From SAR324 cluster bacterium (GTDB lineage: Bacteria > SAR324 > NAC60-12): a stretch of DNA of 64,000 nucleotides. Shown one piece after another: positions 7,213-26,129 of this stretch (the stretch's first letter is position 1; every line of letters begins with the position of its first letter). The notes below the pieces were generated by a model. It did no database searches. It had not been told where the DNA came from and was given only the letters and a program-made list of their open reading frames with translations. A program made the position numbers and the translations under genes. The DNA lies in the NCBI GenBank assembly GCA_028281495.1, contig JANQJU010000095.1, positions 25,206 through 89,205 on the forward strand, read 5' to 3'.

Positions 7213-7213
7213 A

Positions 7214-8296: not shown

Positions 8297-9934
8297 ATGA
8301 AGAATGGTTCATCTGAGGGAGGGGTTATGTCTTGGAAACAACGATTGCTATCGTGGTGTTTGGTTTTGTTGGCCGTGTTGAACATAGCGGGAACCTGCGA
8401 CACAGAAAAAACGTATTCGTCGACCAAGTTGACGATTGTCAGTGGCTCGGAAAACAAAATGCTGGAAGATCTGATTCAAGAGTTTGCTGAGCGCAAACGA
8501 ACGACGATTCAGGTGGAATACCAAGGCAGTGTGGATATTTCCAACCTGATACGACAAGGCACTGCCAATCCCTATGATGCGGTGTGGCCTGCCAATAGCA
8601 TCTGGATCAACTTGGGAGATACCCAAGGAGTGATTAAGCATACAGAAAGTATCTTGCGTTCTCCGGTAGTGTTTGGAGTCCGACAAAGTAAAGCTCAAGA
8701 GTTGGGATGGAATCAAAACCCAGTGACCGTTGCCGACATCTTGACCGCTGCTGAATCGGGTCAATTGAAATTTGCGATGACCAGCGCAACCCAATCCAAT
8801 TCAGGAGCCAGTGCCTACCTGGGTTTTCTTTCGGCATTTGCCGAAAGTCCCGATGTTTTGTTGGAAACCCACCTTCAGCAGTCGGCGGTTGTTGACCGTG
8901 TAAAACGGCTATTAAAAACCATCGATCGGTCCTCGGGGAGTTCCGGTTGGTTGAAGGATCTGATGTTGGAATCGCGAGAAGGACAGTATGATGCAATGGT
9001 GAATTATGAGGCGATGGTGATTGAATACAATCAACATCTTGGCAATCGTGAACCATTGTGTGCGGTTTATCCGGTGGATGGGTTGGTTGTAGCAGACAGC
9101 CCGTTGGGTTATGTGAATAAAGGGGATGTCGAGAAAGAACAGCTATTTCAAGAATTGAAAGCGTATCTCTTATCAGACGCAGTCCAGAACGAATTGATTA
9201 AGCGAGGGCGTCGTGCCGGCGGGTTATTTGGGTTTGACTCCAGTAAAACCAGTGCGGATGTCTTCAATCCCGGCTGGTGTATTGATGTAGACCGCACACT
9301 CACCTCGGTGCGTGTGCCTTCACAATCGGTGATTGAGGAAGCCTTGTTATTATACCAAGAGCGATTGCGAAAGCCTTCCTTTACTGCGTATGTGTTGGAT
9401 TATTCAGGAAGCATGGCCGATGCTGGCGAAGCCGATATGAAAGCGGCAATGGCGTTATTGCTGGATCAAACCCAAGCGCAAGAACATTTGTTACAACCTA
9501 CGCCACGAGATATTCATCTCGTAATCCCCTTCAACGGAGCACCTATTGGCATTTGGCAGGTGCAAGGTAACGATCCCCAGGAGTTGAAAGCCTTGTTGAC
9601 CAAAATCCAACAGCTTCCGGCAAACGGCGGGACCGATATTTATTCTCCAACGGGCTTAGCCCTCGAACTCATTGCCACGGCCGATGTGAATCTTCAGGAT
9701 TATTTTCCGGCAGTGATTTTAATGACTGATGGAAAATCCGAGATGGAGATGAATGATTTATTTAATCAACATCCATCGTATCAACCCCACCAAGATATTC
9801 CGGTTTTTGGCATTGCATTTGGTAATGCCCATGACAGCCAATTGCGAGAAATTACTAACTTTGCCCGAGGGCGTTTATTTGATGGAAAACGCAACTTGGT
9901 TCATGCCTTCAAACAAGCCAAAGGCTACAATTGA
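8297..9934 (+). CDS. Secreted periplasmic-binding-protein-like domain fused to a von Willebrand factor A (vWA) domain
   Basis: N-terminal signal/TM segment (a start at 8327, MSWKQRLLSWCLVLLAVL, after GAGGGAGG is likelier). The C-terminal half has the MIDAS motif YVLDYSGSM, GGTDIYSPTGLAL and AVILMTDGKSE. Confidence 0.7.
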   Translation: MKNGSSEGGVMSWKQRLLSWCLVLLAVLNIAGTCDTEKTYSSTKLTIVSGSENKMLEDLIQEFAERKRTTIQVEYQGSVDISNLIRQGTANPYDAVWPANSIWINLGDTQGVIKHTESILRSPVVFGVRQSKAQELGWNQNPVTVADILTAAESGQLKFAMTSATQSNSGASAYLGFLSAFAESPDVLLETHLQQSAVVDRVKRLLKTIDRSSGSSGWLKDLMLESREGQYDAMVNYEAMVIEYNQHLGNREPLCAVYPVDGLVVADSPLGYVNKGDVEKEQLFQELKAYLLSDAVQNELIKRGRRAGGLFGFDSSKTSADVFNPGWCIDVDRTLTSVRVPSQSVIEEALLLYQERLRKPSFTAYVLDYSGSMADAGEADMKAAMALLLDQTQAQEHLLQPTPRDIHLVIPFNGAPIGIWQVQGNDPQELKALLTKIQQLPANGGTDIYSPTGLALELIATADVNLQDYFPAVILMTDGKSEMEMNDLFNQHPSYQPHQDIPVFGIAFGNAHDSQLREITNFARGRLFDGKRNLVHAFKQAKGYN

Positions 9935-9971
9935 AGCATCGTATTACACGGAACTATGAAGGAGACGGATC

Positions 9972-10610
9972 GTGTTTGCATTACGCTGGTTGCCACGGGA
10001 GTTGTTATCGGGGGGGCTATCATTAGGTGTCTATCTGGGTATGGAATGGGGGTTAACTTTAGTGTGGTGGGTGGATGTAACGGCCGCTTTATTGACTTAC
10101 GGAGCCTTGCATCTCGTGATTGCTCGAAAAAAGGAAGCTGATGAAATTCAGGCCCGGGGGCTTTCCCTCACCCAAGCTGAACTGCATGCTAAGGTGAACA
10201 ACGGGCTGGACATGGCCCGACAATTTGCAGCATTGGCCAAAACGATTCCGCAGTCGCCTATGGCTCCTGTGCTACAGGACATCAGTCAAGTGGTGGAACA
10301 GATCTTTAACCATTTCTTAGACGATCCAAGCGACTATCGAAAAGTCTTTGCCTTTGTGGATAACGACATCTCTTTAGGTTTAAAACTTGCCGAGTTCTAC
10401 ACGAAATACAGTCAAACTCCGGGATTAGGATCCGAAGAACAGCAGATGTTACAGGATAAAGAGAAAGTGATTCACAAATTTTTAGAAGGATGCCAGCAAT
10501 GCTATCGCAAATGTTTGGAAGATGATTTTCAAGAGTTTGACCTCCATGCCGACTATCTTCATAAATTGTTGGACTCTGAATCATTCACCATCACGACCGG
10601 AAAATATTAA
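9972..10610 (+). CDS. XpaC-like (5-bromo-4-chloroindolyl phosphate hydrolysis protein family) membrane protein
   Basis: GTG start after AAGGAGA. Two N-terminal TM helices plus a helical domain, ~210 aa, encoded in the same operon upstream of a TelA-like gene (one PBP-like gene lies between them), recalling the xpaC-yaaN pairing known in Bacillus subtilis. Confidence 0.45.
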   Translation: MFALRWLPRELLSGGLSLGVYLGMEWGLTLVWWVDVTAALLTYGALHLVIARKKEADEIQARGLSLTQAELHAKVNNGLDMARQFAALAKTIPQSPMAPVLQDISQVVEQIFNHFLDDPSDYRKVFAFVDNDISLGLKLAEFYTKYSQTPGLGSEEQQMLQDKEKVIHKFLEGCQQCYRKCLEDDFQEFDLHADYLHKLLDSESFTITTGKY

Positions 10611-10619
10611 GGAGGCTGT

Positions 10620-11714
10620 GTGAAAAAATACCGTACCCTGGCAGGACTCGTCATTTTGATTGTGGGAATTGGTATCGTTGCTTTGTTGCAGCTACTCGAT
10701 AACGATGTCTTCCAAGAAGTCCGTGCCCCCGATGCGATCACTGTGAAAGGCTATTATGGAGGGGAAAAAAGGGCATTTTTGCACAACGAAGCGGTTCTGG
10801 ATTTACTGAAGCAGCAATATGGCATCACCTTAGACCTCACCCGTCGAGGGAGTGTAGCTATGGTCACAACCGAATCCTTGGCGGGCTTTGATTTTGTGTG
10901 GCCTTCCAATCAGGTCACTGTGCAGTTGTTCGAGCAAACCCATCCGACGGTTACCTTTAAATCTCAAATCGTGTTCAATTCCCCGTTGGTGATTTACACA
11001 TGGGGGGAAATTGCGGAGGCTTTGGAACAACGCGGTGTGGTGGAAAAGCGAGGTGAGCATTATTACATCTTTCGCGCTAAAGAACTGATGGAATTGGTGT
11101 TGCAGAAAACCAAGTGGTCAGAGTTTGGCCTGAACCGTTGGGGAAGTATTGCTTTAGTGACCACCGATCCCCGTAAATCCAACTCAGGCAATATGGGGGC
11201 AGGCCTGATTGCCAATTTGCTGCAGGGCGAAGTGGTGTCCTTAGACACCCTACCTCAAGTGGAATCACAACTGGTGGACTACTATAAATCATTGGGATTG
11301 ATGGAAGCGTCGTCAGGCACATTGTTTGACAAATTTATCAAATCCAATGGATCGGTAGGCATGATTTTGGGATATGAAAACCAAATGATTGAATTTTCCA
11401 TTGAGCACCAAGAGGCCTTAGAATTGATTCAGCAGCGGGTTCGTGTGCTGTATCCCGAACCCACGATCATGACCAGCCATCCGTTAATCTCTCTGAATGA
11501 AAAGGGGCAACGCTTGCAACAAGCACTCGAAGATCCTCAAATCCAAGAACATGCTTGGCGAGATCATGGGTTCCGTACCGGGATCAGCGGTATCCAAAAC
11601 AATCCTAATGACTTGAAAGGGTTGAAGGTTCCTGAATTCATCACCAACGCCATGCCCATGCCCAGTGCACGGGTCATGAGTCGGATTATCGAGACTTTGA
11701 ATCAGAACCTCTAA
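10620..11714 (+). CDS. Membrane-anchored periplasmic-binding-protein-like protein, paralogous to the N-domain of the 8297 gene
   Basis: GTG start after AAGGAGG and an N-terminal TM helix. ITVKGYYGGEKRAF...FDFVWPSNQV parallels LTIVSGSENKML...YDAVWPANSI in the vWA protein. Confidence 0.55.
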   Translation: MKKYRTLAGLVILIVGIGIVALLQLLDNDVFQEVRAPDAITVKGYYGGEKRAFLHNEAVLDLLKQQYGITLDLTRRGSVAMVTTESLAGFDFVWPSNQVTVQLFEQTHPTVTFKSQIVFNSPLVIYTWGEIAEALEQRGVVEKRGEHYYIFRAKELMELVLQKTKWSEFGLNRWGSIALVTTDPRKSNSGNMGAGLIANLLQGEVVSLDTLPQVESQLVDYYKSLGLMEASSGTLFDKFIKSNGSVGMILGYENQMIEFSIEHQEALELIQQRVRVLYPEPTIMTSHPLISLNEKGQRLQQALEDPQIQEHAWRDHGFRTGISGIQNNPNDLKGLKVPEFITNAMPMPSARVMSRIIETLNQNL

Positions 11715-11746
11715 ATTTTCTCCACTTCCTTTGTTAAGAGGTTGTT

Positions 11747-12898
11747 ATGAGCACAGAAACTTCTTCGACCAGCACGGATCTGACCTTTCCCGGATTACAA
11801 AGCAAACAAGAATTGATTGCCACCGACTCGTTCACTCCAGAAACCTGGAAACGGGTGGAACAAGAAGTGGACAACATTCCGTTTGTGGTGGGAGGTCGTT
11901 TGGCGCTCAACACGACGATCCCACTAACCTTTGGGGCCAAACCTCAGGAGGCGTTGGGGCAGTTTTTGGAAACACTGATTGGCGATATGAAAGCCAAGGA
12001 TGCAGGCATTGCGGGTGATTTGGCTATTGAGTTAGCCCGTGGCATCGAAATGATGAACTTGCATCAAGTGAAAGAAGAACTCACGCAACCACAAAGCATG
12101 TTAGGTAAATTGTGGAAGTCGTTGACCTTTGCTTCCTCGGCCATTGAGGGTTTTTGGGCGCAACATCAAGAGGTGCTTAAGTTGATTGATGCGATCAAGC
12201 AAAAGACGGAAACCCGAAAACGAGCCTTATTGTTCGATTTGGAAAAACTCGACAAACTTTTGGCTCAGTATCAGGTGCATGCGGATGAAGTGCGGCTCTA
12301 TATTGCGGTAGGGGATCGTGTGTTGGAAAAAGCGGAATCCGAGTTTCAAAGCTTGTCAACCAAAACACAAAACGATCCCGAACGCGTGGCAGCTTTGAAG
12401 GATTTCCGTGATTGGATCACCAGTTTTGATGTGCGATTGTTGAATCTGAAAGTTGCTTTCACACAGTCAGTGACAACAGCACCAACGAAAGTCCGTTTGA
12501 TTCAAGAGTCTCAAAAGGTGGAAATTCAGAACATCATTGAATCGATCTTGTTCGATTTACCCAAATTGATGGATGCAATCATCCAAATGGGCAGCTTGTC
12601 CAACATCAAAGAGGCGCAAGCAGAAGACGATGCACGAAGGAAAGTGACGGAACAGTTGGATTCCTTGAGTGCGGAAGCCATACAGCAGGCCTACTTACAA
12701 TCCAAATCGAGTCAAGGTCGCGCATTAGAAACGGTGGAACGGTTGAACACTGTGGCCGAGCATCTGGTCCAAACCTTGGAACAAGGCAAAGCGTTAGAAG
12801 CCCAAAATGAGGAAAAACGCCAGCAAGCCGAAGCGGGGTTGATGGAGATTCAACACAAAGTAGCGCAAGCCTTAGAAGACGCCTCGCGTCCGGCATAA
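11747..12898 (+). CDS. TelA/YaaN-like toxic anion resistance family protein
   Basis: 383 aa and all-helical, which fits TelA family size. Operon context with the XpaC-like gene supports the call. I cannot verify a family-specific motif by eye. Confidence 0.5.
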   Translation: MSTETSSTSTDLTFPGLQSKQELIATDSFTPETWKRVEQEVDNIPFVVGGRLALNTTIPLTFGAKPQEALGQFLETLIGDMKAKDAGIAGDLAIELARGIEMMNLHQVKEELTQPQSMLGKLWKSLTFASSAIEGFWAQHQEVLKLIDAIKQKTETRKRALLFDLEKLDKLLAQYQVHADEVRLYIAVGDRVLEKAESEFQSLSTKTQNDPERVAALKDFRDWITSFDVRLLNLKVAFTQSVTTAPTKVRLIQESQKVEIQNIIESILFDLPKLMDAIIQMGSLSNIKEAQAEDDARRKVTEQLDSLSAEAIQQAYLQSKSSQGRALETVERLNTVAEHLVQTLEQGKALEAQNEEKRQQAEAGLMEIQHKVAQALEDASRPA

Positions 12899-13922: not shown

Positions 13923-14192
13923 CTAGCTTGTTTTGAGATTTATTCGTCGGGGCTGTGCGGGAGGTGATTGGTGACTCAAAATCAAAGTTTGTTGCGTATT
14001 GATAGGCAGGACATGAACCCCCTTGAACGAATAGAAAACCCATCGAGCCGTAGGCCGCTTCGTGGGCTTGCTTTTCTGGTCAGGGAAAGTTGCTTGATGG
14101 TGTTCCAACTGCGTTCGAATTCGATTCTCCAAAGCCGCGTAGACCAGTAAACACAGATCATAATCATCATTAAGTTGGAACCTATTATTCAA
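13923..14192 (-). mobile_element. IS4/IS1634-family transposase C-terminal fragment
   Basis: KPTKRPTARWVFYSFKGVHVL resembles the conserved G-K-P-T-x-R-P-T-x-R-W-(I/V)-F block of IS1634-type transposases. The 89-aa remnant has no catalytic region. Confidence 0.45.
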
Positions 14193-14258
14193 AAACTTAC
14201 AATTTGGACTGAGGAAAAGCGGATAACAGATGGATTGGGGGAAAGGAGTGTAATCGAA

Positions 14259-17200
14259 TTATCCATGGTTGGGCGGGATATTGAGATCAGGAATCTTTAA
14301 AGCATTGCCTATGAAGACCACATTAAACGTAGTAATTTCTATTTTATATCGCTCCATCAATTCTTTACTCCTTGGATGCAATCGAATTTTCCAAGTGGCA
14401 TATAGGGGCGGCCAATTGGTATCGGCCCGAAAGCTATCTTTTCCCGATTGTCGCTTTGACCGTGTGATTTCCCCATTGATAACCTTCACTTCAGACAAAT
14501 ACCGCGTCGAATCTGTACTCTGAAAGTATCGTAGCTTGGTTGGAATTTGATCTGAAATTGGGTCAATGGAATTCTCATCATTTGGATTCACGATCACTTT
14601 ATCCGCAACCAAATTTTGGCAATGGGTTTCTATATCAATCTCCAATTTTTTATCTGACAGAGATTTACTATTGCTTAGCTCCAAATCAATATCCACATGC
14701 TCAACTCGAAAGAAATATAACTTTCTGGTCTCTTCAAAAAATGAAGTATCTGACATTAAATCCAACTCAACAGTTTCTTGATTATTCAGTTGGTCTATTA
14801 GAGCTTGTTTTTCAATAGAGTAGATGACTTTTTCGCCCTTTATCATGCTTTTGGTCATTGGATAGTTTCTGTTGATGATTTTACTTGTCGTCAGATCTGA
14901 CAATTGGTTCTTAAGTTCAAAGGCCTTTTTTTGAATATCAATGAGTGCAATATCCAGTTCAGATTTGCGCAAGAATCGATAGAAAGAGGCGTTCTCGTAA
15001 TCAAGAATCAGTTGAGTAAGCTCCCGATACAAATCAATTTTTGATGTTAAAGTCATTAAGCCCAGTGCCTCGACCTGGGCCTGTTCGGCTTTACTTTCGT
15101 CCTCGAATTCCTTGGCAAGCTCCTTTTGCTGGCGGAGATTTTCACATTTCAACAATTCCACTTGGAGTTTGATTTCCAAATCAAAACGCTTCTCCATCAA
15201 ATTAAAGCCACCTTCGGCCTCGAAACTCATCTGTTCATAGGCTCGCAAAAAGTTTCTTGCACTTTCCTCATTGTAGATATTGTGGATACGGTCTCTTATT
15301 TCGGCATGATTTGTTTTCAATCTCACCAACCAAGCTTTTGCTTCACTCAATTGTTTGATGGGGTCCGGTTCCAGTTCAAGGTCATTTCGTAAACCTGAAT
15401 TTGCGAACAGACTGGAATCGGTTTGATCCAAATCTATGGAAATATTGTGTGCTGCGGACTTCAATTCATCCAAAAGGGGCAAGTATTGGTTTTTATAGTT
15501 TGCTAGCGCGATGAATGCGTTGGCCAATTTTTGCCCGTCGATAGTGCCTTGATGAAAGTCTTGCAAATTTCGTTTAAGCCACATTCTAGACCTATTTTTT
15601 TTCCAACCCTTGTAAAATGATTCCTTCAATTTTTTGCCATAAGGATTGTCCTTGAATGATTTTTCAATATCATCTTTAAGTGTTTCAATTTCTTGGGGCC
15701 ATTTATCGTTTATGTTTTCATTCAATAGATTGAGTTGCTTTATTTCCTTATCGAGTCTCTGTCTATCTTGTGCTTGGTTCTCTCCAGAAGCATTGTCCAT
15801 TTCCTCCTTTTTTTGACGAATGGTGTTTTCGATCTCGGGATATTTTTGTTGGTTAGCTGCGATCCAATCTTCCAACTGTTGTTTTCTTTCTGCGTTTTTA
15901 CCTAGGTTATCAGAATACATTTTGTTGAAGCCTTGGCTGTATTCGTCCCCTTTTTTTGAAATGATTGTTGATGAAATTTTTTCAAATGATTCAACGATGC
16001 TTTTTGTATCCTCATCTTGTATTAGAGCTTTAATACCAACTCCAACGCCACCCACAACAGCCCCCAAAAATAGAGGTGCCGTTGCTCCACCCGTCGCAAT
16101 GGTGACCACTAGGCTTCCCAACATACCAGCAACAGACTCAATGGCATTGAATATCAATTCTTGCCTTCGCTTTTTTTCGAGAGCATCCAATTGGATTTCA
16201 AGTACGTGAAGCAAATACGGTGTGGAATCTCCCAAGTCTTGGATAGCTAGAGACACTTTTTTGATTTCTCTGTCAGTTTGACCAATTGTCTTCTTATAAA
16301 GTTCAATAGTTTCTTGAGAACTATTCCTGGTATTCACTTGAATCAGGTGATGATACTCAGCATTTTTTTTGAACGATTTTAAGAGGGTTGTTAAATTATC
16401 GAGGTTTGTTTCTTTTGATTCCAAAATTTGGATATTTTCGGAAACAAAAATTAGCTTTTTGTAATACTCATCTACATAATACTCTGGAATAGGGTATGGA
16501 TTATCTCTATCTCCGGTGGCTAAAAACTTTTTAACAATGCCGTCCAGGAAGTTCTTCACTAGTATTTTTTGAGAGTTCAAATTTTCGTTTTCAAATTTAC
16601 ATGAACTCAACCAATTGACAATAGATTGTGCTTCTAAATAGTATTTTGACAGTAACAATTCATTGATTAAATCCGATTGAGCGATCACAAATCGTTCTAA
16701 ATTTGGATGTTTCCGCCAAAGCTTTTGGTCTGTTCCAAAGTAGTGAGGGTACAAAAAAAGGGGTTTTTTCAGTGAATAATCTCTAGAAGCGAGTCGTTGT
16801 TCTTCACTAAAATTTCTTGCTGCGTTGATTGTTTGCGTTGAATTTTTTTCAACTTTGTGAAGACTACCTTCACCACTGTACCAAACCTTGAATGAGTAGA
16901 TTGGAGCGCTTTTATTGGATTTAGATAATTGAATATAAGAGTGATCCTTGGTTTCTACTTTGCTTAGTTGGGTAAGTTTAGAGTCAGCATCTATTTTGCT
17001 ATTTGAATGATATATATTCTGATAAGTTATTTGTAACCCGCTATATTCATCCAAACAGAATAGTTGATTAGGATCTTCATCATCAGGAATTACAAAAATT
17101 TGTCGCGCAACAATAGTTAAGCTCGTGCTGACTAAGTTCCGTAGCCATGTGTTCTTGGAGCTTTTGTCTATCAATAGAGTGTCACAGATAATAAACACAT

Positions 17201-17495
17201 TGAGTAAACAGGGTATGTCAGTTCGATCAATTGGATCTCTTTGTTGGTCTGTATGAGTATTTTTTTTTAGTTGGTACTGATTGTATAGCTTATTCAGGAT
17301 ATCTTGTTGCTTTGCAAAACTAAAAATCCATTGCTGAGCTACAAATGTTGTTGCCGTACAATACTCTTGATCAATTTGTCTTGTATGATCGTCATTGCCA
17401 GTTACTTCTTCTGGAATAAAACCATGTCTGTCTAACCAGAATTGATAGTCATCTAGAGTATCGAATTGAAGTGGATCAAGAATTTTTGTTTGCAT
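14259..17495 (-). CDS. Orphan 1078-aa protein with central glycine-zipper membrane segment and long coiled coils
   Basis: AT-rich ORF overlapping the upstream 421-aa ORF by 20 nt. AGMLGSLVVTIATGGATAPLFLGAVVGGVGVGIKAL is a Gly/Ala-zipper hydrophobic hairpin flanked by Lys/Glu/Gln-rich heptad-like segments. I recognise no catalytic motif. Confidence 0.6.
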   Translation of the reverse strand: MQTKILDPLQFDTLDDYQFWLDRHGFIPEEVTGNDDHTRQIDQEYCTATTFVAQQWIFSFAKQQDILNKLYNQYQLKKNTHTDQQRDPIDRTDIPCLLNVFIICDTLLIDKSSKNTWLRNLVSTSLTIVARQIFVIPDDEDPNQLFCLDEYSGLQITYQNIYHSNSKIDADSKLTQLSKVETKDHSYIQLSKSNKSAPIYSFKVWYSGEGSLHKVEKNSTQTINAARNFSEEQRLASRDYSLKKPLFLYPHYFGTDQKLWRKHPNLERFVIAQSDLINELLLSKYYLEAQSIVNWLSSCKFENENLNSQKILVKNFLDGIVKKFLATGDRDNPYPIPEYYVDEYYKKLIFVSENIQILESKETNLDNLTTLLKSFKKNAEYHHLIQVNTRNSSQETIELYKKTIGQTDREIKKVSLAIQDLGDSTPYLLHVLEIQLDALEKKRRQELIFNAIESVAGMLGSLVVTIATGGATAPLFLGAVVGGVGVGIKALIQDEDTKSIVESFEKISSTIISKKGDEYSQGFNKMYSDNLGKNAERKQQLEDWIAANQQKYPEIENTIRQKKEEMDNASGENQAQDRQRLDKEIKQLNLLNENINDKWPQEIETLKDDIEKSFKDNPYGKKLKESFYKGWKKNRSRMWLKRNLQDFHQGTIDGQKLANAFIALANYKNQYLPLLDELKSAAHNISIDLDQTDSSLFANSGLRNDLELEPDPIKQLSEAKAWLVRLKTNHAEIRDRIHNIYNEESARNFLRAYEQMSFEAEGGFNLMEKRFDLEIKLQVELLKCENLRQQKELAKEFEDESKAEQAQVEALGLMTLTSKIDLYRELTQLILDYENASFYRFLRKSELDIALIDIQKKAFELKNQLSDLTTSKIINRNYPMTKSMIKGEKVIYSIEKQALIDQLNNQETVELDLMSDTSFFEETRKLYFFRVEHVDIDLELSNSKSLSDKKLEIDIETHCQNLVADKVIVNPNDENSIDPISDQIPTKLRYFQSTDSTRYLSEVKVINGEITRSKRQSGKDSFRADTNWPPLYATWKIRLHPRSKELMERYKIEITTFNVVFIGNALKIPDLNIPPNHG

Positions 17496-18741
17496 CAGAC
17501 TCCTTGTTTGTAACAGCGTTATCTAAATCGTCTAAAAAAACAAAAAGTGTTTCAAGCCGGGCCTCAACGAATCGAATGAGATGGAAATTGTCCCACATAA
17601 AGGCTTCGATCTCTTGTGTACTGAAACTATTCGTGCCTCTTATATGTTGTAAGTGTTCCTCAAGACTGATTCGGGTGCTGACAATCCAATCTTTGCCGCT
17701 CGTTTTGCTGCTCTTTACCTCCTCTTCAACATCATACCACTTATAAAAATTGTTGAGTTTGGTAATTAAATTTTTCAGTGAAGCAATATGGGTCTGATAG
17801 GTTTCCATAAAATCTTGGCAACTTTGATACCAACAAATGGTGAAGCTATTTACAAAGAATTTGTTTTCGGCTTCGTCCAACCCTGCGATCATGTTGTCAC
17901 ACATTCTTTGAAAATAAAAAGGGATGTTCCAATGGCCCGCTTCTTTGCGCTTTCGAATATCGGCCTTTTTTTCTTGGAAATTAAACTTAAGTGAATTGAG
18001 TGAGAAGTCGGATTTTTCCAAAACTATTTCTTTCTTAAACTTTCTCTCATAATCGTCACCATTATCAAAGAAACCTTTAGCTTCATGGTCGCCCAAGAAA
18101 TAATATACTTTGAGACTATCTATATAGGATGTTGGTTGAAGATTATCGTTGATTATTGTCAACATTTTATCGTTTTCACCTTGGAAATCTTGTTCGATTT
18201 TAATCAATGATTTCTGAATTCTGTCTAATTTATCTTTTATAAATTTTATCAATTCGATTAGTTGATCGATTTTGAATACGACTTCTGATTGGCTAAAAGT
18301 CCCTGGGTTTTCAAGCTGTTCTTTAAAATATTTGATTGTTTCATTAATTGTTTCTTTTGGTTGAGGATGCTTCTCACTGTCTCCGAACCTTAGTTCATAA
18401 AAATCGTTTTTTAGGTTTCTTAATCCACCTTCCTCAAGTTTTTCTCTAGATATAGAGTCAAAAGTATTGATGGATTTGATTAAATCCAGATAGTCCATTC
18501 TTTCGGAAACAAAGTGGATTTGATCATAACAATGTTGAAAGATACGATCTTGACTAGAGGGGGCAATTAAATGAGATTTGTTTTCTACCCAAGCTGGCGA
18601 ATTTTTAATCCACTCTTCGATTTGTTTTCTTGTGTATGGTAACGCAAAATTGAATTTAGCTTTTTCAGATTTAGCCGCAGGTAAACCGGCAAGAGTTTTT
18701 AACGAGTCATATTCTTTTTGTGTAATGCCACTAACACACAT
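17476..18741 (-). CDS. Orphan 421-aa protein, first gene of the two-gene island operon
   Basis: Long uninterrupted AT-rich ORF, same strand as the 1078-aa ORF and overlapping it. Predicted soluble and helical, with no recognisable domain. Confidence 0.55.
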   Translation of the reverse strand: MCVSGITQKEYDSLKTLAGLPAAKSEKAKFNFALPYTRKQIEEWIKNSPAWVENKSHLIAPSSQDRIFQHCYDQIHFVSERMDYLDLIKSINTFDSISREKLEEGGLRNLKNDFYELRFGDSEKHPQPKETINETIKYFKEQLENPGTFSQSEVVFKIDQLIELIKFIKDKLDRIQKSLIKIEQDFQGENDKMLTIINDNLQPTSYIDSLKVYYFLGDHEAKGFFDNGDDYERKFKKEIVLEKSDFSLNSLKFNFQEKKADIRKRKEAGHWNIPFYFQRMCDNMIAGLDEAENKFFVNSFTICWYQSCQDFMETYQTHIASLKNLITKLNNFYKWYDVEEEVKSSKTSGKDWIVSTRISLEEHLQHIRGTNSFSTQEIEAFMWDNFHLIRFVEARLETLFVFLDDLDNAVTNKESDANKNS

Positions 18742-18851
18742 AATAGAAGTCCTACGATTTGATGTTGATCCGTCAAAGGGTGAGTCGGGTTATTGACGTT
18801 GGGAACAACCGTTTCTTATCAAGTTGGTGATCCATTTAATGAATGGTGAAT

Positions 18852-19188
18852 TTACCTGAAATCTGGAATCGCAACGGCTGTGGTGAGGCTTTTCGGAAGC
18901 CCATGTTTTGCTAGGGAACCCCCGGTAAAGCTGGGATCATCCGTGACCTCTCGAATCGCATAGTCTGGCATGGGAAAGTTAATCAGTAGAAGGGGCCCTG
19001 CCATCGATGGGCCGTGCCTCTCTCAATCTCAGTTGTGATCCTGTCACGTATAAATCCGTAATCACTTCAGTCGTCACCACCAAATGATGAGGCACTTCAC
19101 GGCATAGCCAGCGGCGCTCACGTTCAACCGCCATATATTTCGTTTTGGGGAAACCCAGTTCTAATGCTGTCTTTGGATTGATATTCAT
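18852..19188 (-). pseudogene. CYTH-domain protein, disrupted
   Basis: The N-part AVERERRWLCREVP...ITDLYVTGSQLRLREA (ExExK-like start) ends in a stop at 18979. A different frame downstream reads PDYAIREVTDDPSFTGGSLAKHG, the typical CYTH C-terminus. The middle of the domain is missing. Confidence 0.5.
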
Positions 19189-19570
19189 TGAGACTCGTCT
19201 TGATGCTCAACTATGATTACTATGATATAATTACTATGAATTGATAACTGCAAGCTCTGGTTCGTCGCACACTCGACGTCGGTTTTTTGAACCGCATCGA
19301 TGAAAGCCTCGAGCTTATCAGGATCGAGACGCCCCCTTGTACGGACACCTGAGCACAAATCCACCCCGAACGGACGCACCGTTTTCATGGCTTCACCGAC
19401 ATTGTCCGGTGACAATCCACCCGCAAGAAATACCGGATGGGAGATACGTCATACAAATTCATCACTCACTGACCAGTCATGGATTCGGCTCGTCCCACCA
19501 TATTCTGGAGTGCTTAACGAAGGCCGTCTAGAATCGAGTAAAATTGAGTTAATGGCATCGCTACTAATAA
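19185..19570 (-). pseudogene. trpF: Phosphoribosylanthranilate isomerase, 5'-truncated and frameshifted
   Basis: One frame reads AINSILLDS...GGTSRIHDWS. A second frame reads PVFLAGGLSPDNVGEAMKTVRPFGVDLCSGVR..GRLDPDKLEAFIDAV. Together these match the C-terminal ~90 aa of TrpF, and no N-terminal half is present. Confidence 0.7.
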
Positions 19571-19580
19571 ACACATTGAT

Positions 19581-19602
19581 AATTACTACATATGTAGTAA
19601 TT
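19581..19602. promoter_or_regulatory. Perfect 22-bp palindrome AATTACTACATATGTAGTAATT, putative BlaI/MecI-type operator
   Basis: Lies 48 nt upstream of the blaI-like start. It contains the TACA/TGTA dyad typical of BlaI/MecI operators, and its core TACTACA-N2-TGTAGTA recurs at 21231-21254. Confidence 0.6.
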
Positions 19603-19649
19603 AAGAGAAAATCCGTATCTTTAAACGATAAATCTGAAGTCATGGAACG

Positions 19650-20054
19650 ATGAAAAAGAAACCATTAACCCTCGGACCGTTAGAAATGGAGTTGTTGGGG
19701 TTATTTGAAGACAATCGAGAATTGTCGGTTCGCGATGTTCAAGCGGAACTGAGAAGCCGAAACAATGAATTAGCGTATACAACGGTTATGACGGTCTTAG
19801 GCAGGCTGTATGATAAGAATCTCTTGAATCGTCGTAAAGCAGGGCGGCAATATATCTATTTTCAAGCACAAGAAACCCCTACTACAGGAAAATCATTTTT
19901 GAATCAGGTCAGTCATGCCTTGTTTCACAATCAACGGTTAAAACCGATTCTTTCCCTATTGGAAGAAGATGAATCTCTTACCGAACAGGAGTTGTTGGAG
20001 TTAAAAAAACAAGTGGAGCTTAAAATTCAGAAAATGAAAAAGAGTGAAAAATGA
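19650..20054 (+). CDS. blaI: BlaI/MecI/CopY-family winged-helix repressor
   Basis: 134 aa. LGPLEMELLGLF...LSVRDVQAEL...LAYTTVMTVLGRLYDKNLLNRRKAGRQYIY is the penicillinase-repressor fold pattern. It overlaps the downstream M56 peptidase gene by 4 nt. Confidence 0.85.
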   Translation: MKKKPLTLGPLEMELLGLFEDNRELSVRDVQAELRSRNNELAYTTVMTVLGRLYDKNLLNRRKAGRQYIYFQAQETPTTGKSFLNQVSHALFHNQRLKPILSLLEEDESLTEQELLELKKQVELKIQKMKKSEK

Positions 20055-21190
20055 TCGACTTCACGCTGATGAGTACGAACCTCATTATCAATTCTATACT
20101 TTCCTTTTGGATGGCTGCTTTGATCATTTCCATTAGCCTGAAAATCGTACCTTTGGGAATCAATCGAGGGAAACTCACCATCCTTCTGTTGCCGCTGGTG
20201 GTCCTAGTTTGGGATTGTTTGCAAGGGATCCCATCGAATTCCATTCTGTCGTTAGGATATGAAAAAGCTCAATGGATTTTTGCACATAAGATGGATCCTG
20301 GAATCAATCTGGGTGGAGCTATCGCAACATGGTTAGGGCCAACATTTGCGGTCAATTTTATCCTTTATCTGGAAACGCCAGCCGGTAATTATTCGATGAG
20401 TTATGTTGATTTTATTTTGCTATTCATGGATCGACGAGAAATTTTCATACTATTGTTGGTCGGGAGTCTTTTCATCATCTGTATTTCTTGTGTTCGAATT
20501 TTGCGACGGGCCTTCCATTATTATAGATTTAGCCAGCAGACTGGCTCCTTGCCAAATCCGACTCACGTTGTGCTGACACAAAAAATAGGCCCACCAAGAA
20601 AAATCCCCATTTTTCAGTCCAATGATCAATCGATGATTCCGTTTGCCGGAGGAATCATAAAACCCTTCATTCATATTCCGAAGTGGCTCGATTCAGTCCT
20701 CACCTCTCAAGAACAAAATGCTGTTCTTCAACATGAATTGGCCCATATTAAGCACCGAGACTTGATCCTCTTTTATGCTCTACAGTTTTTAACGGATCTC
20801 TTTTGGTTCATTCCAGGCATCTCACGTTGGAATAAAAAAATTTTATGCTTCATTGAACAACTAGCCGACCAAACCGCCATTCGTTCTGGAGTTGAACCTA
20901 CAGATTTGGCGTCTGCCATGATCAAATTGAAGCAGCACCACCTGAACTCAAACCAAGTATTTGGGATGTCTGTCAGTCCAAACACCATGTTTCAACAAAG
21001 AATCAATCTCTTATTACAACCCCCTCAGCTTTCCAGTTGGTTTGCTTCTACGTGTTGGGGTAAAATCGGAATCGGTTTCTTTTGGTTTTGGACATGTCTT
21101 GGTCTACAAGCAAACTTCCTGGGGAACCATGATTTAACCCCCCCCTTTCAGATGCCGGTGATGACTCTAATTTATCAATTATTTATTTAA
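20051..21190 (+). CDS. M56-family (BlaR1/MecR1-like) membrane zinc metalloprotease lacking a C-terminal sensor domain
   Basis: Multiple TM helices and the HExxH motif in LQHELAHIKHRDL. At 379 aa it is too short to include the ~250-aa penicillin-binding sensor domain of classical BlaR1. Confidence 0.8.
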   Translation: MIDFTLMSTNLIINSILSFWMAALIISISLKIVPLGINRGKLTILLLPLVVLVWDCLQGIPSNSILSLGYEKAQWIFAHKMDPGINLGGAIATWLGPTFAVNFILYLETPAGNYSMSYVDFILLFMDRREIFILLLVGSLFIICISCVRILRRAFHYYRFSQQTGSLPNPTHVVLTQKIGPPRKIPIFQSNDQSMIPFAGGIIKPFIHIPKWLDSVLTSQEQNAVLQHELAHIKHRDLILFYALQFLTDLFWFIPGISRWNKKILCFIEQLADQTAIRSGVEPTDLASAMIKLKQHHLNSNQVFGMSVSPNTMFQQRINLLLQPPQLSSWFASTCWGKIGIGFFWFWTCLGLQANFLGNHDLTPPFQMPVMTLIYQLFI

Positions 21191-21230
21191 TCACCTACAA
21201 AACAGGAGGGTTAATAAATTTTTGTAACTT

Positions 21231-21254
21231 AAAATACTACACTTGTAGTATTTT
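21231..21254. promoter_or_regulatory. Inverted repeat AAAATACTACA-CT-TGTAGTATTTT, second putative BlaI-type operator
   Basis: 11-bp perfect arms, ~70 nt upstream of the 21322 start. It shares the core TACTACA-N2-TGTAGTA with the palindrome upstream of blaI. Confidence 0.6.
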
Positions 21255-21321
21255 AATAATTAAAACAAGGATTGCAGGGGGCTATTTCTCTTCAATCATT
21301 ACGTTACAAAGGAGAGTAATC

Positions 21322-22584
21322 ATGAATCGACATATGCCAACCGCCATTTCATTGATATTAGGAATGGCTTTAGTTTTCATAGCTTCTTGTTCAACCACTA
21401 GCCCGTATCTTGATGTATCAGACCAGGAAAAACGGATAGAAATTTTAAGCAAGTGGTTAGAGTCGGAGCGAATTAAAAGCCATATCGCAGGAATGTCCAT
21501 TGTGATTGTACAAAATAACCGGGTACTGCTGAAACAAGGTTTTGGGTGGTCAAATGTTGAGGAGAAAATACCTGTAACCCCCAAGACGCTCTTTCCTATG
21601 GGTTGTTTAACAAAAACATTCACAGCAACACTCATTGCCAAGTTGGTTGATGAAGGTAAATTAGATTGGGATGATCCTGTGGCTAAGTATATTCCTGGTT
21701 TTAATCTGACGATAAAGAGTGACCATGAGAATGATACTGTAACCATTCGAGATTTACTCACCCATCGGGTAGGGATCGGTCTAACATCTAACAAAGGCTG
21801 GAATAATATGACGAGCCTAGAAGAAGTGCTGACAGCATTATCTGAAGAAAAACCAGCCGCTAGATTCAGAACAAGTTATCTCGATAATATTGCCCTGGAT
21901 ATGGCTGCAGGAGTTTCAGCAGGTAAGGCATCAAATTTGAGTTGGGCCGATTCCTTAAAGACTTTTTTACTAGGGCCGCTTGAAATGAGAAATTCTCAGG
22001 ATTTGGTCCTGCTAAAAAAGAAAAAACTCCGTCAATTTACGAGTTATGATTGGATAGAAAAAGAAGAAAAGTTTAAGAGCATTCCTTGGAAAAACGCTTT
22101 TGTGGATAACAATCCAGCAGCAGGGTTGGTTTCTAATGCAGAGGATATGGGCAAATGGCTAAAGTTTCTATTGAATCAAGGCAAATTTAATCGCCAACAG
22201 GTTGTGAGTGCAGAACAATTACAAGAAACTTGGACCCCTCAGATTGATTTGCCATGGCAGTGGGCCGTTGACCTCAAATTTTCAAAGGGAATATTGGGTG
22301 GAGATGCCGCAGAATATTACGGAATGGGATGGGTGATTGGAGAGAAAAAGGGACAAAAAGTCATCGCGACGAGAGGGCGTTATTCAAAGTTCCGTTCTCG
22401 AATGGTTTTGCTTCCTGATACAAACGTTGGTTTTGTTGTAATGGGAAACTCCCCCGGACACAATTCGGATTTATATTCAAAGTTGATAGATAATATCTTT
22501 GAAGCTGTGTTAGGCAGCCGAAGCCACGACCCAAATGCGACACACGACCCACAACCACACATACCACTTCACCAAACCCGCTAA
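21322..22584 (+). CDS. Beta-lactamase/PBP-fold (class C / family VIII esterase-like) lipoprotein with Cys replacing the SxxK serine
   Basis: Lipobox LVFIASC. TLFPMGCLTKTFTATLIAKLVDEGKLDWDDPVAKYIPGF aligns to the F.(I/L)(A/G)S.TK.FTA...L...G.L.LDD.V..Y(L/I)P motif, but codon TGT (Cys) occupies the nucleophile position. The KTG/HTG box position reads TRG. Confidence 0.75.
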   Translation: MNRHMPTAISLILGMALVFIASCSTTSPYLDVSDQEKRIEILSKWLESERIKSHIAGMSIVIVQNNRVLLKQGFGWSNVEEKIPVTPKTLFPMGCLTKTFTATLIAKLVDEGKLDWDDPVAKYIPGFNLTIKSDHENDTVTIRDLLTHRVGIGLTSNKGWNNMTSLEEVLTALSEEKPAARFRTSYLDNIALDMAAGVSAGKASNLSWADSLKTFLLGPLEMRNSQDLVLLKKKKLRQFTSYDWIEKEEKFKSIPWKNAFVDNNPAAGLVSNAEDMGKWLKFLLNQGKFNRQQVVSAEQLQETWTPQIDLPWQWAVDLKFSKGILGGDAAEYYGMGWVIGEKKGQKVIATRGRYSKFRSRMVLLPDTNVGFVVMGNSPGHNSDLYSKLIDNIFEAVLGSRSHDPNATHDPQPHIPLHQTR

Positions 22585-22835
22585 TAAGCGAAGATCTTCG
22601 GCCTGAAGTGCTTTCGATCCGACGTACCAGATCGTCTTTCTCATCCAAATTGAAGTCGATTCGTTGATCGGTCACTTCGCTTTCCAAGTCACGTTGCTCC
22701 CGAAGCCGTTTGCCTTTACCCATTGATTCCTTTTAGTCATGAAAAACTTTCCATAACCAAAATTAACACCAATTCGCAAATGATTTGTGGATGGAGTCAT
22801 TTGTGGAGAAATCGTTTGAAAACCACAAAATTTCA

Positions 22836-23819
22836 TCAAAATCTTAATTGAAAAGTAAATCTTGGAGCCAAAGTTCTTGAAGATTCTGGATCATCAAAGT
22901 TACTGGCATCTTCTCCCGGCTTTGCCTTCATATCTTTGGCTCTTTGAAGGCGTCGACCATCCGTGATGGTATTTGCCCCAAAATGGATTGCTATGGCCAA
23001 ATCCAAATCAAAATTAGGATTTGCCCCGTGATACACCCAACCGGTATACATAGAATCTACAAAGAGAATAAGATCAAATTCTCCGTGGAGAAGGGTGAAG
23101 ATCACGCTAGAAACAAAATTGCTGCTCCAGCGAGCCATACTGTGAGAAAGTGAATCTTTAAAAAGATGATAGAACCAGTTCTGGATGATTCCTCGGCTGA
23201 GCAGTTCCTCTCCGATACTGGTTAAGTAGGCGTTAACTAAGGTCCAGTTTTGAAGGTCCTCTTTTGTATAGCCATCTGTGTGGTAAACAAACTTTGGAGT
23301 TTCCTGGGTTTCAGTTTGTAGGGCCACTCCAGGATAAAAGGTCGGTTCCAGAAGATAATCCCAAAACTTCAAAGGAGATAAAAAATAGCCATAAGTTTCA
23401 TTATTATACTCACAGGTTTTATCATACAGATCCTGGCTCGTAATTTGCCAAAAGGCAAAGTAGATTCTCCAATAGTTTGCTGCCATAAAATTTTCATATG
23501 GCATAAAAACATCGACCTGGTCTTCATGCCGATAAGGACCTCCATGCTCATCACTGGTGTCCCGGTAGATTTTTTCATCATCGGGTTCAAAATCTTTATG
23601 ATTACGAAAATAGATCGTGCGTTCCAGAGAAAGCCATCGAGTTATACCGAAGGTCAAGGCTTTATCATATTGTCCCAGCCTAGAGTACCCTACTCCTGGT
23701 AAAAGCGTTTCTATCGCCCAAGTGCCCCAGCATTTTGAGATAGAAGTGGCATTGATCGAAGTCGTTAGTACAAAATAGATGGCCACTGAAAGCGCGATAT
23801 CCAAATTTTTTTTAACCAT
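22836..23819 (-). CDS. CPBP (CAAX protease/bacteriocin-processing) family intramembrane protease
   Basis: Motifs EELLSRG (EExxxR), FTLLHG (FxxxH) and AIHFGAN (HxxxN) occur in order in the C-terminal half. There is an N-terminal signal/TM segment. Confidence 0.6.
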   Translation of the reverse strand: MVKKNLDIALSVAIYFVLTTSINATSISKCWGTWAIETLLPGVGYSRLGQYDKALTFGITRWLSLERTIYFRNHKDFEPDDEKIYRDTSDEHGGPYRHEDQVDVFMPYENFMAANYWRIYFAFWQITSQDLYDKTCEYNNETYGYFLSPLKFWDYLLEPTFYPGVALQTETQETPKFVYHTDGYTKEDLQNWTLVNAYLTSIGEELLSRGIIQNWFYHLFKDSLSHSMARWSSNFVSSVIFTLLHGEFDLILFVDSMYTGWVYHGANPNFDLDLAIAIHFGANTITDGRRLQRAKDMKAKPGEDASNFDDPESSRTLAPRFTFQLRF

Positions 23820-24039
23820 GATCCACTTTCTATTTTAAATATATAAGTTCTACCCAAACCAACTTCCGCCTTGAAGCTTGAAAAAACAATACTTGTTGGA
23901 TCCATGTTTGATATCAAACCCATTGATTTTCAAAGTTTTTTTCATGAACGGTTGGTATTCAGCACTGAACGGTAGAAAAAGTGAATATGGGTTATTCTGC
24001 TAACATTTAGATATCGCGAAAATTCTCAAATTTTATCAT

Positions 24040-25023
24040 ATGCTCAAAAAGATTATAAAAAGGCTTCAACAGCTCGTTCAATTTCCTCTGCCTTATCCAG
24101 ATAGATTTTCAGGCAGAATACAGATTTATAGTTTATACGCCACCTTAGGAGGAGGTTTTGCTTTTGCCATTGATTATTTTTCGTACCCTGAAACAAATTG
24201 GGACGATTTTTCTTTGAGCTTGATTTATCTATTGCGAGCAGGAGTGGCGTATTTTTTTGCTTGTTTGATTATTGATGAATACTTAATGCCTCTGCTGCCT
24301 AAGGGGTGGGGGAAGCATTCAAATCGTACGGTAGGTAAAAATTGGATTGTTCAACTGGGAATAGCGAGTTTGTTTTTTCTCTGTATTGAGGTTTCTGATC
24401 TCTTCCTCATCCCTCTGCTCCAAGGTCTTGGATTTCCGTCAAATGTTGATCACTTTGCCTTTTGGGAAGAGTATTTCAGGATCTTACCTTATCTGGCTGT
24501 GATTATGTTTATAGTCATGACATTTCAAAAAAAAATGAATTATTTTTATCAATTACAAGATGCCAAAAAGATCAATCAACTTTTGATAGGAAAACATGAA
24601 CTTTTCGATCCTCCCAATAATTCGAATGTTTTATCTACAGAATCGAATCAGAGTAAGCCCTCCTTTTCTCCTGAAAAACTGATTCTACATACAGCTCAGG
24701 GGCAAGAGTTGGTCGAATTGAATTCAATCATTTATATAAAGGTCAAAGAACATTCCACTCAACTGTTTATTGACAAACTAGGGGGAATGAAAACCATTTA
24801 TGTTTCAACCTCTTTAAAAGAACTTAAGGAAAAACTGCCTGAATCGTCTTTTATTCAGACACATCGGTCATATATTGGAAATTTAAAATTTGCCAATCGA
24901 GTCGTAAATTATGGTGGAAAATATTTGCTTTATCTCAAAGAAGATCAATACTCTATTCCGATTAGTCGAAGACGGTTCTCTGAAACTTCAAAAAAGATAA
25001 AAGAGTGCTATAAAAACGATTAG
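24040..25023 (+). CDS. Membrane-anchored LytTR-domain DNA-binding protein
   Basis: The N-terminal half has several TM helices. The C-terminus IIYIKVKEHSTQLFIDKLGGMKTIYVSTSLKELKEKLPESSFIQTHRSYIGNLKF is a LytTR domain. Confidence 0.75.
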   Translation: MLKKIIKRLQQLVQFPLPYPDRFSGRIQIYSLYATLGGGFAFAIDYFSYPETNWDDFSLSLIYLLRAGVAYFFACLIIDEYLMPLLPKGWGKHSNRTVGKNWIVQLGIASLFFLCIEVSDLFLIPLLQGLGFPSNVDHFAFWEEYFRILPYLAVIMFIVMTFQKKMNYFYQLQDAKKINQLLIGKHELFDPPNNSNVLSTESNQSKPSFSPEKLILHTAQGQELVELNSIIYIKVKEHSTQLFIDKLGGMKTIYVSTSLKELKEKLPESSFIQTHRSYIGNLKFANRVVNYGGKYLLYLKEDQYSIPISRRRFSETSKKIKECYKND

Positions 25024-25467
25024 AGAAGAGGCTCTACTTTTCTACAATGCCAATCCTCCAAACCATTCCGGTGTAACAAAGATTCCGCCCCTGAAAGAAC
25101 ACTCATCTCGGCCAGGAACACCGAAGTCCCACGATAACGGTTAGTTTCCGACTCATACGATTTTTCATTATCAATCATTTCTATAAACTGAATCTTTTAT
25201 TTCCCTCAGTATCAATGAAAAAGAGCTGTGTTAGCCGTCAATTCACAGCCTGCTCCAACATGACTTGGCTGAAATCCTTCGCTACCGATCTATTTGGGGT
25301 TCCGGCGAGGTACGCAGGCTCGTCGAGCTTATCTGACATCGCTGGAAGCGATCCGTATACCCCATGTTTCGCTCAACCTACGCTTCAATCAGGGAGATAT
25401 CGAAACAATGTTGAAACGTCTGACCGATGACATACTGGCACATTTCATTGAATGAGGGAGAGAGACT

Positions 25468-26129
25468 ATGCAAAAAATCATTCTTGTTACCGGTTCAACT
25501 GACGGCATCGGGCTAGCTACGGCCAAGATGCTGGTCTCGCAGGGCCACCACGTCCTGCTACACGGCCGCAATCCAGCAAAATTGGAGGAGGCAGAAAAAA
25601 CCCTTTCCAGGCTATCAGGGGGAGGAAGTATTGAAAGCTATGTGGCGGATCTATCGGTTATAAACGATGTGATGGCACTCACGAACACCGTGGCGGAACG
25701 GACCCCTAAACTCGATGTGCTGATCAACAACGCGGGTGTCTATCGGACGGCCAATCTCGTCACGCAGGACGGATTGGATGTGCGGTTTGTTGTCAACACG
25801 ATTGCCTTTATCTGCTGACTCAACGGCTTATGCCGCTGCTTGGAGTTTCCGGACGAGTAATCAATCTTTCTTCTGCTGCTCAGTCTCCTGTTGATCCCAA
25901 GGCGATGGTGGGACAGGTCCAGCTATCTGACTTTGAAGCTTATGCGCAAAGTAAATTGGCGCTGACTATATGGTCCCGTAGTATGGCGCTTTCGCTCCAG
26001 GATAACGGCCCGGCAATCATCGCGGTTAACCCTGGATCGATGCTCGGCAGCAAGATGGTGAAAGAAGCCTTTGGAGTCGCTGGCGGCGATATCCGTATAG
26101 GCGCAGAAATTCTCAGCCGCGCAATACTG
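25468..26129 (+). pseudogene. Short-chain dehydrogenase/reductase, frameshifted and 3'-truncated
   Basis: ILVTGSTDGIGLATA (TGxxxGxG) is followed by NNAG. The frame breaks near 25805-25810 (NTIAFIC-stop in one frame, YLLTQRLMPLLG...INLSS..YAQSK in the next). SDR similarity stops at ..IGAEILSRAIL (~26129). Confidence 0.75.

Follow-up and report, generated by a model that had tools for sequence, protein, structure and literature searches.

BlaI/M56 switches and the locus of a SAR324 cluster bacterium

In the BlaI/BlaR1-BlaZ and MecI/MecR1-MecA systems of Staphylococcus aureus and in BlaI/BlaR1-BlaP of Bacillus licheniformis, a repressor of the PF03965 family is combined with an M56 protease partner carrying the HExxH motif, two operator positions and a target of the penicillin-recognising superfamily. 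The published BlaI/MecI operator is a dyad of 24-30 bp around the core TACANNTGTA (PMC1935004; PMC7253601). In a 2026 survey of about 15,000 M56 proteins, a transpeptidase sensor domain was present in only about 6%, and a BlaI-like gene was located within five genes of 96% of the M56 genes (PMC13492132). Here, a locus of this type is described in a 64,000-nt stretch of DNA from a SAR324 cluster bacterium (GenBank assembly GCA_028281495.1, contig JANQJU010000095.1), which is referred to as the window. A combined open reading frame (ORF) and Pfam scan identified genes for a BlaI-like repressor, an M56 protease and a PF00144 lipoprotein, three in a row on the + strand between positions 19650 and 22584 (Table 1). 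The locus is probably a proteolytic signalling module consisting of three genes, of the non-canonical, CenIR-like BlaI/BlaR type, with a non-catalytic lipoprotein as its output. The module itself is a common non-antibiotic switch of repressor and membrane protease and not a new kind of system. The lipoprotein cargo is unusual and so far comes from only one genome.

CenIR of Clostridioides difficile consists of cenI and the sensor-less cenR, followed by cdr_0474, whose 136-aa (amino acid) exported product is derepressed 500-fold on CenIR depletion (PMC13492132). The order of a blaI-like repressor gene, an M56 gene without transpeptidase sensor domain and a downstream gene for an exported protein is the same in the window, where gene order, export signal and an operator before the third gene are all present. 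The exported protein is the most strongly repressed target of CenIR, a system which is not a beta-lactam response (PMC13492132). The two systems differ in the Firmicutes origin of CenIR, without close sequence relationship, and in the target, which is a 420-aa lipoprotein with the fold of penicillin-binding proteins (PBPs) in the window. In target size the relatives of the window module come close to CenIR, their secreted protein having about 135 aa.

With the S. aureus and B. licheniformis systems the window shares the repressor family, the TACANNTGTA core within a 24-30-bp dyad, the two operator positions, the M56 HExxH partner and a target of the penicillin-recognising superfamily. Unlike BlaR1 and MecR1, the window protease has no C-terminal penicillin-binding sensor domain, and the Asn-Phe dipeptide is not kept in the repressor. 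The target gene lies downstream on the same strand, whereas those of BlaZ, MecA and BlaP are divergent. Its product is of class-C instead of class-A fold, and the catalytic Ser, Tyr, Asn and His are absent from it.

A further system for comparison is BlaI/BlaR of the mycobacteria (Rv1846c/Rv1845c). It is cited as the published non-canonical example (PMC13492132) and also combines BlaI with an M56 protein without a beta-lactam-binding domain. Members of its regulon are an active class A beta-lactamase and genes of energy metabolism, which lie elsewhere in the genome, whereas the target in the window is adjacent and looks catalytically dead.

By fold and motif state, the lipoprotein resembles MipB (PA1797) of Pseudomonas aeruginosa. 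The lipoprotein MipB is induced by polymyxin. Its fold is AmpC-like, SXXK is missing and the YXN and KTG motifs are degenerate, and it was proposed to co-sense for the system by which it is induced (PMC10936184). Both proteins are envelope lipoproteins without a functional SXXK, and both are under envelope-stress signalling control, presumably so in the case of the window. MipB is controlled by the two-component system ParRS, carries two extra C-terminal beta-barrel domains and has the outer-membrane protein MipA as a partner. In contrast, the window lipoprotein would be controlled by BlaI/M56 and ends in a His-rich tail instead of a C-terminal domain.

Operators and their conservation in related loci

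The palindrome upstream of blaI (operator O1; halves TAATTACTACAT and ATGTAGTAATTA) ends 46 nt before the ATG at 19650. The original prediction had already described it as perfect, which is correct, and as 22 bp long, which has to be extended to 24 bp. Upstream of the lipoprotein gene, the arms TTAAAATACTACA and TGTAGTATTTTAA of operator O2 flank the spacer ct, and 65 nt lie between the end of O2 and the ATG at 21322. This palindrome was also known beforehand, with arms of 11 nt that were found here to be 13 nt long. The 16-bp core common to O1 and O2 is TACTACANNTGTAGTA. Allowing up to two mismatches, it occurs at exactly two sites in the 64-kb window, whereas 0.08 sites are expected by chance and at least two sites were found in 0 of 100 shuffles. 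Nine more matches appear at three mismatches, which is the chance level.

The core of O1 and O2 matches the published BlaI/MecI operator core TACANNTGTA, and the central 14 bp of O1, ACTACATATGTAGT, equal the sequence obtained when the published half-operator of S. aureus mecA, ATAAGACTACAT, is completed to a palindrome (PMC1935004).

Related loci were reached via the neighbours of BlaI matches and then by a metagenome pattern scan. The scan, using an alignment of the relatives' M56 proteins, added 22 loci to a total of 26. In these 26 metagenomic loci the order operator, blaI, short M56 gene, operator, target is conserved. Of the informative loci, 19 of 20 have the operator motif, defined as TACTAC-N4-GTAGTA with at most one mismatch, at the blaI start, and 17 of 21 have it within 150 nt downstream of the M56 gene. 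For the 26 upstream sites the consensus is TTGACAa.TACTAC....GTAGTA, i.e., a −35 hexamer, two bases and the operator. In the window, TTGATAAT followed by TACTAC is found upstream of blaI, which is the same −35/operator geometry; by this comparison alone the putative −35 hexamer sits 2 nt upstream of the operator core. In addition, O2 has the left flank AACTTAAAATACTACA, which recurs unchanged at the corresponding place in one of the related loci (L088).

The same motif at the same two positions of the related loci, together with the match to the published core, agrees with the earlier suggestion that both palindromes are operators of the BlaI-like repressor. They are credible as genuine operators to which the repressor would bind.

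A second, distal operator is present in many relatives. At the corresponding place in the window (19562-19577) a left half-site TACTAA is located 22 bp upstream of O1, and its right arm is degenerate. The window thus seems to have lost the distal operator. In one related locus, L090, a third perfect operator, TACTACAAGTGTAGTA, was found at 1676-1691, about 60 nt upstream of a separate ORF for a 306-aa membrane protein (1754-2674), with blaI following 1.9 kb further downstream. In some genomes, the regulon may therefore reach beyond the module.

Among the related loci with enough downstream sequence, the operator-controlled third gene codes in 15 of 18 for an unrelated protein which is secreted, about 135-147 aa long and without Pfam match. 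A PBP-fold gene occupies the third slot in none of these related loci, and no remnant of the small secreted-protein gene was found in the window by tblastn. Because the second operator of the relatives usually controls this unrelated protein of about 135 aa, the lipoprotein is, by comparison of the loci, to be placed in the output slot of a conserved module, where it would replace the usual cargo, and not in a conserved sensor slot. The secreted proteins of L085-L111 (e.g., L088:6572-6982 and L093:5215-5628) form a conserved family, whose position parallels that of CDR_0474 in CenIR.

Repressor and M56 protease

The repressor matches PF03965 with 77.5 bits, far above the Pfam gathering cut-off of 22.6 bits. 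Its residues 3-119 align to S. aureus BlaI (1sd4/1xsd) and 4-120 to MecI, which corresponds to the full length. With 22-25 bits it stays below the cut-offs of the NCBIfam BlaI/MecI models (180-250 bits). The nearest relatives share about 50% identity and adjoin short M56 genes, whereas the named BlaI relatives, from metagenome-assembled genomes (MAGs) of Bdellovibrio and Oligoflexia, reach 41-46%.

Copper regulation of the CopY/TcrY type was considered and rejected. The 134-aa repressor contains no cysteine and therefore no CxC...CxC motif, so that it is not a CopY-type metal sensor. Its partner is a protease, and its score against the CopY model TIGR02698 was 44.5 bits with a cut-off of 122.

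For the M56 protein, a score of 56.3 bits was obtained against PF05569 (cut-off 31). Both zinc motifs are intact, namely HELAH at residue 228 (HExxH) and EQLAD at 269 (ExxAD). Clear hydrophobic segments were found in the N-terminal part at residues 11-29, 42-60 and 130-148, and about 25 residues separate the last hydrophobic stretch from the C-terminus. In the Pfam scan nothing beyond M56/M48 was detected, in particular no PF00905 transpeptidase sensor domain, and the score against the model blaR1_generic was 36.5 bits compared to a cut-off of 400. This bears out the earlier statement that the protease of 379 aa lacks a sensor, as no Pfam domain follows the M56 domain.

The protein is collinear with the M56 proteins of the related loci (26-28% identity, E 1e-35 to 1e-38). 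A word-index homologue search yielded three matches, and a search of the PDB sequences gave nothing at E <= 0.01. The M56 proteins next to the nearest BlaI relatives are 373-386 aa long, and those of all close relatives 370-395 aa. Because of this uniform length, and because only about 6% of M56 proteins carry the sensor domain, the sensor-less state is the rule in the family and not an oddity. The loop between the second and the third transmembrane segment, about 70 residues long and predicted to be periplasmic, contains residues that are invariant in a four-sequence alignment of the window protein and three relatives.

A lipoprotein of class-C fold with a degenerate active site

The frame of the lipoprotein gene is intact over 420 codons in DNA of about 42% G+C and is preceded by a GGAG ribosome-binding sequence. 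The N-terminus reads MNRHMPTAISLILGMALVFIAS up to Cys23 (codon 21388-21390), with a hydrophobic segment at residues 5-23 and a lipobox IAS-C, which was judged by pattern only. Besides the lipid-modified Cys23, Cys95 is the sole cysteine of the mature protein; its codon is TGT at 21604-21606. As the locus sequence is the same in contigs from three separate sequencing runs (four Logan loci from three contigs, 100% identity to the window), Cys95 is not an assembly error.

In HMMER alignments with solved structures, Cys95 falls on the catalytic serine ('GCLTK' compared to 'GSITK' in Pab87 and 'ASNTK' in Flp). Multiple alignments were prepared from 120 word-index matches and from the top 150 of an exhaustive search of 1.84 billion representatives. 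The nucleophile column holds Ser in 281 of 281 other aligned domains. The two approaches agree on what had been predicted, a class-C-like lipoprotein with Cys in place of the nucleophile Ser. The His column of the H/K-x-G box holds Thr350 (Thr350-Arg-Gly; His in 118 of 121 sequences), in line with the TRG box read originally. Shortly behind it, Lys356 is found where Gly is nearly invariant. The loss of the Y-x-N motif had been missed in the earlier description, in which the altered Ser was correctly recognised: this column reads Asp188-Asn-Ile190, whereas Tyr is found in 119 and Asn in 110 of 121 sequences.

Taken together, S95C, Y188D, N190I and H350T affect columns that are 92-100% conserved in 118 homologues, and Lys98 is the catalytic survivor. 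The flanking F100 and T101 are kept. Among the 66 domain columns with at least 85% conservation, 52 are kept and 14 lost. Of the 5 catalytic positions 4 are lost, compared to 10 of the remaining 61 (Fisher p = 0.006).

An AlphaFold2 model based on a 119-sequence alignment reached a pLDDT of 88.3 and a pTM of 0.88, and Cys95 is located at the N-terminus of a modelled helix (94-110). The best Foldseek matches were Pab87 (2qmi), Flp (4gdn), the R61 DD-peptidase (1ikg), AmpC, ClbP and LACTB (E 1e-26 to 1e-20, TM 0.64-0.72), with a probability of 1.00 for 2qmi, 4gdn, 1ikg and AmpC. With these S12/class-C-fold hydrolases the lipoprotein shares the fold, the Lys of SxxK and many core residues. By its exchanges of Ser to Cys, Tyr to Asp, Asn to Ile and His to Thr it stands outside the motif-defined serine-hydrolase family. 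The lipoprotein is descended from an S12/class-C-fold serine hydrolase and has kept the fold, whereas four of five catalytic residues are lost. Because of this combination, it is most likely a non-catalytic pseudoenzyme, a reading which is far likelier than that of a thiol enzyme as judged from its sequence and predicted fold.

The protein sits on a long branch, as its median identity to the matches is 33% compared to 49% among the matches themselves. No relative above about 40% identity was found in the databases searched (about 15 billion proteins), and no copy of the gene in the GTDB scan. The C-terminal PF11954 domain of most homologues is absent and a His-rich tail, HDPNATHDPQPHIPLH, is found instead.

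A survey of the homologues had been proposed for the nucleophile residue and for linkage to M56 genes. It returned Ser throughout, and an M56 gene in the vicinity in 1 of 80 homologue loci. Ser in all homologues is one half of a pattern that had been named beforehand as refuting the original prediction, the other half being an elevated dN/dS. This single case is L078, from a Planctomycetota MAG, where a row at 2025-7812 codes for a BlaI-like protein, a 401-aa M56 protein, a 572-aa coiled-coil protein and a 661-aa PBP-fold protein with intact Ser. Upstream of its blaI gene a direct repeat, CAGACAAAACGACTG, was found, which is not a TACA/TGTA palindrome. Given the intact Ser and the lack of a shared palindrome, the linkage of PBP-fold and M56 genes in L078 was judged to be coincidental.

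A second PF00144 protein is encoded in the window at 47713-50402. It has 548 aa, and its SVTK, with the nucleophile Ser present, aligns to CLTK of the lipoprotein. The best NCBIfam match was 3-succinylated cholic acid synthase, far below the cut-off, and the gene adjoins one for an AraC/GyrI-like regulator. Recent paralogy of the two PF00144 genes was rejected at an identity of 21%.

Proposed function and alternative explanations

For the locus the following course of events is proposed. The BlaI-family repressor would bind as a dimer to the two 16-bp palindromes, TACTACA-NN-TGTAGTA, the first of which would lie between the −35 and the −10 region of the blaI-M56 promoter and the second in the promoter region of the next gene. 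Upon an envelope signal, the short inner-membrane M56 zinc protease, without an extracytoplasmic sensor domain, would inactivate the repressor, whereupon both transcription units would be derepressed. The lipoprotein produced in this way would act as an envelope pseudoenzyme with a binding or scaffolding role. In this scheme we infer that the repressor binds to the palindromes and is cleaved by the M56 protease, and likewise the nature of the signal and the non-catalytic function.

Several observations weigh against the scheme. The cleavage dipeptide Asn-Phe of S. aureus BlaI (Asn101-Phe102) aligns to Ser-Leu in the window repressor. A generic sigma-70 scan called no promoter at O1 or O2. Orthologues of the lipoprotein, by which purifying selection could be demonstrated, were absent from the databases searched. 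The locus lies in a low-GC block beside a broken trpF remnant, with which a gene heading to decay would be compatible. Finally, the retained Lys98 and Cys95, as the only non-lipidated cysteine, leave room for some thiol chemistry.

As an alternative, the lipoprotein could be a detached sensor or co-sensor, i.e., a dead ligand-binding protein which reports to the sensor-less M56 protease, for example via its periplasmic loop, and which would be both output and input of the switch. This had been raised as one of two possibilities in the original prediction and is unlikely. The M56 protein has no sensor domain of its own and its periplasmic loop contains the invariant residues mentioned above. 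Precedents are MipB, the dead beta-lactamase-fold lipoprotein that is induced by ParRS and was proposed as its co-sensor (PMC10936184), and PbpP of Bacillus thuringiensis, a separate, stand-alone PBP that senses beta-lactams for a regulated proteolytic cascade (PMC8092216). PbpP differs from the window in that it binds beta-lactams, binding being needed for activation, and feeds an anti-sigma factor cascade instead of BlaI/M56. However, in 15 of 18 loci the partner of the equally sensor-less close M56 relatives is the small secreted protein, which is unrelated, and in none is it a PBP-fold protein, so that the corresponding slot holds another protein. The lipoprotein homologues in turn are rarely linked to M56, the only such locus among the 80 having no shared operator. 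Moreover, a sensor that is repressed at rest would be an awkward design.

A decaying gene is likewise improbable. According to this explanation the lipoprotein gene is a recently acquired, inactivated copy which drifts under relaxed selection without function, and the Cys is one of many neutral changes. All homologues keep the Ser, Tyr and His that are exchanged here. The protein is a singleton on a long branch, whose nearest relatives among about 15 billion proteins do not exceed about 40% identity, and lacks the PF11954 domain of most homologues. The gene is located in the low-GC block (14-26 kb) beside a truncated trpF remnant with an in-frame stop. Against drift stand the intact 420-codon frame at about 42% G+C, the intact GGAG and lipobox and the confident fold prediction. 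In addition, 52 of 66 conserved core positions are kept, whereas the catalytic positions are preferentially lost (p = 0.006). A fold that is retained with its chemistry removed is the mark of a pseudoenzyme.

The other possibility of the original prediction, an active acyl-transferase or hydrolase in which Cys95 and Lys98 form the catalytic pair, is very unlikely. Cys95 occupies the very position of the nucleophile, at the N-terminal end of helix 94-110, and is the only non-lipidated cysteine, and Lys98, F100 and T101 are kept. An engineered Ser70Cys variant of TEM, a 'thiol-beta-lactamase', reportedly keeps partial activity. Nevertheless, a thiol enzyme is a poor fit because it would still need the environment of Tyr, Asn and His. 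In addition to the exchange of the Ser, Y-x-N has lost its general-base Tyr (to D) and its Asn (to I), H-x-G has lost its His (to T) and the Gly at position 356 is replaced by Lys, and Cys occurs in 0 of 281 other aligned domains.

Most improbable is a 'split BlaR1', in which Cys95-Lys98 in a strongly cationic pocket (R351, R353, K356) would capture an envelope-derived or xenobiotic ligand (by thioester formation, thiol oxidation or alkylation), whereupon the loaded lipoprotein would dock on the conserved periplasmic loop of M56 and trigger repressor cleavage; if true, it would be a positive-feedback sensor made from a cysteine version of the penicillin-recognising fold.

If the reading as a BlaI/M56 module with a non-catalytic lipoprotein as output is correct, the locus is a clean, comparatively footprinted case of a BlaI/M56 switch unrelated to beta-lactams, a type which makes up the large majority and has hardly been studied. 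It would offer an operator of 16 bp that is conserved at two positions, together with a defined promoter geometry, and the output slot of the module would be swappable. With a natural penicillin-recognising fold in which Ser is exchanged for Cys and the motifs are stripped, the ligands of dead PBP-fold lipoproteins could be investigated. No long-standing question is opened by the locus, and the lipoprotein, from one genome only, may prove functionless.

Genomic setting of the locus

The positions of the identified features are summarized in Table 1. The start of the M56 gene and the stop of blaI overlap by 4 nt.

Table 1. Genes and regulatory elements of the blaI-M56-lipoprotein locus (positions in the window).
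Feature	Position	Strand	Remarks
BlaI/MecI-family winged-helix repressor gene	19650..20054	+	134 aa, PF03965, 77.5 bits, E 1.3e-21
Short M56 membrane zinc-protease gene	20051..21190	+	379 aa, PF05569, 56.3 bits, E 3.8e-15
Class-C/S12 fold lipoprotein gene, degenerate active site	21322..22584	+	420 aa, PF00144, 188 bits, E 2.5e-55
Putative −35 hexamer TTGATA of the blaI promoter	19576..19581	+	comparison with related loci
Operator O1	19580..19603		perfect 24-bp palindrome; core TACTACATATGTAGTA at 19584-19599
Operator O2	21229..21256		13-nt perfect arms, 2-nt spacer; core TACTACACTTGTAGTA at 21235-21250

The locus is part of a block at about 14000-26000 with a G+C content of 36-42%, compared to 45-50% in the flanks, which may be an acquired island. 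Besides the blaI-M56-lipoprotein module and the broken genes, the block contains two large ORFs of 1078 and 421 aa without Pfam match as well as the CPBP and LytTR genes.

The blaI promoter is abutted by the 3' half of trpF (PRAI, PF00697; 19185-19560, − strand), which has an in-frame stop and whose 5' half is absent. Antisense to this remnant, a public gene caller placed an 88-aa ORF on the + strand (19387-19653), which has no Pfam match and is suspected to be spurious. Two short ORFs without Pfam match overlap in different frames at 18852-19188 (− strand) and look like one broken gene.

Directly downstream of the lipoprotein gene, at 22836-25023, a gene for a CPBP/Rce1-like intramembrane protease (− strand, 327 aa) is divergent from the LytTR gene. 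The N-terminal two-thirds of the 327-aa LytTR DNA-binding protein are hydrophobic by eye, which suggests membrane anchoring.

Neither tRNA genes nor Rfam families were found in the 64-kb window. At 8297-12898, genes for an SBP+VWA protein, Halogen_Hydrol (PF10112), a 364-aa protein without Pfam match and TelA resemble toxic-anion-resistance sets. A gene for a 665-aa MACPF/perforin-domain protein is located beside one for a GH30-family glycosidase (30855-32852 and 28742-30739, both on the − strand). Finally, at 55095-63773, a gene for a TIR-domain protein with pentapeptide repeats (− strand) adjoins cas3 (56587-59211) and cse1 (59208-60674), which look like the start of a type I-E CRISPR-Cas operon.

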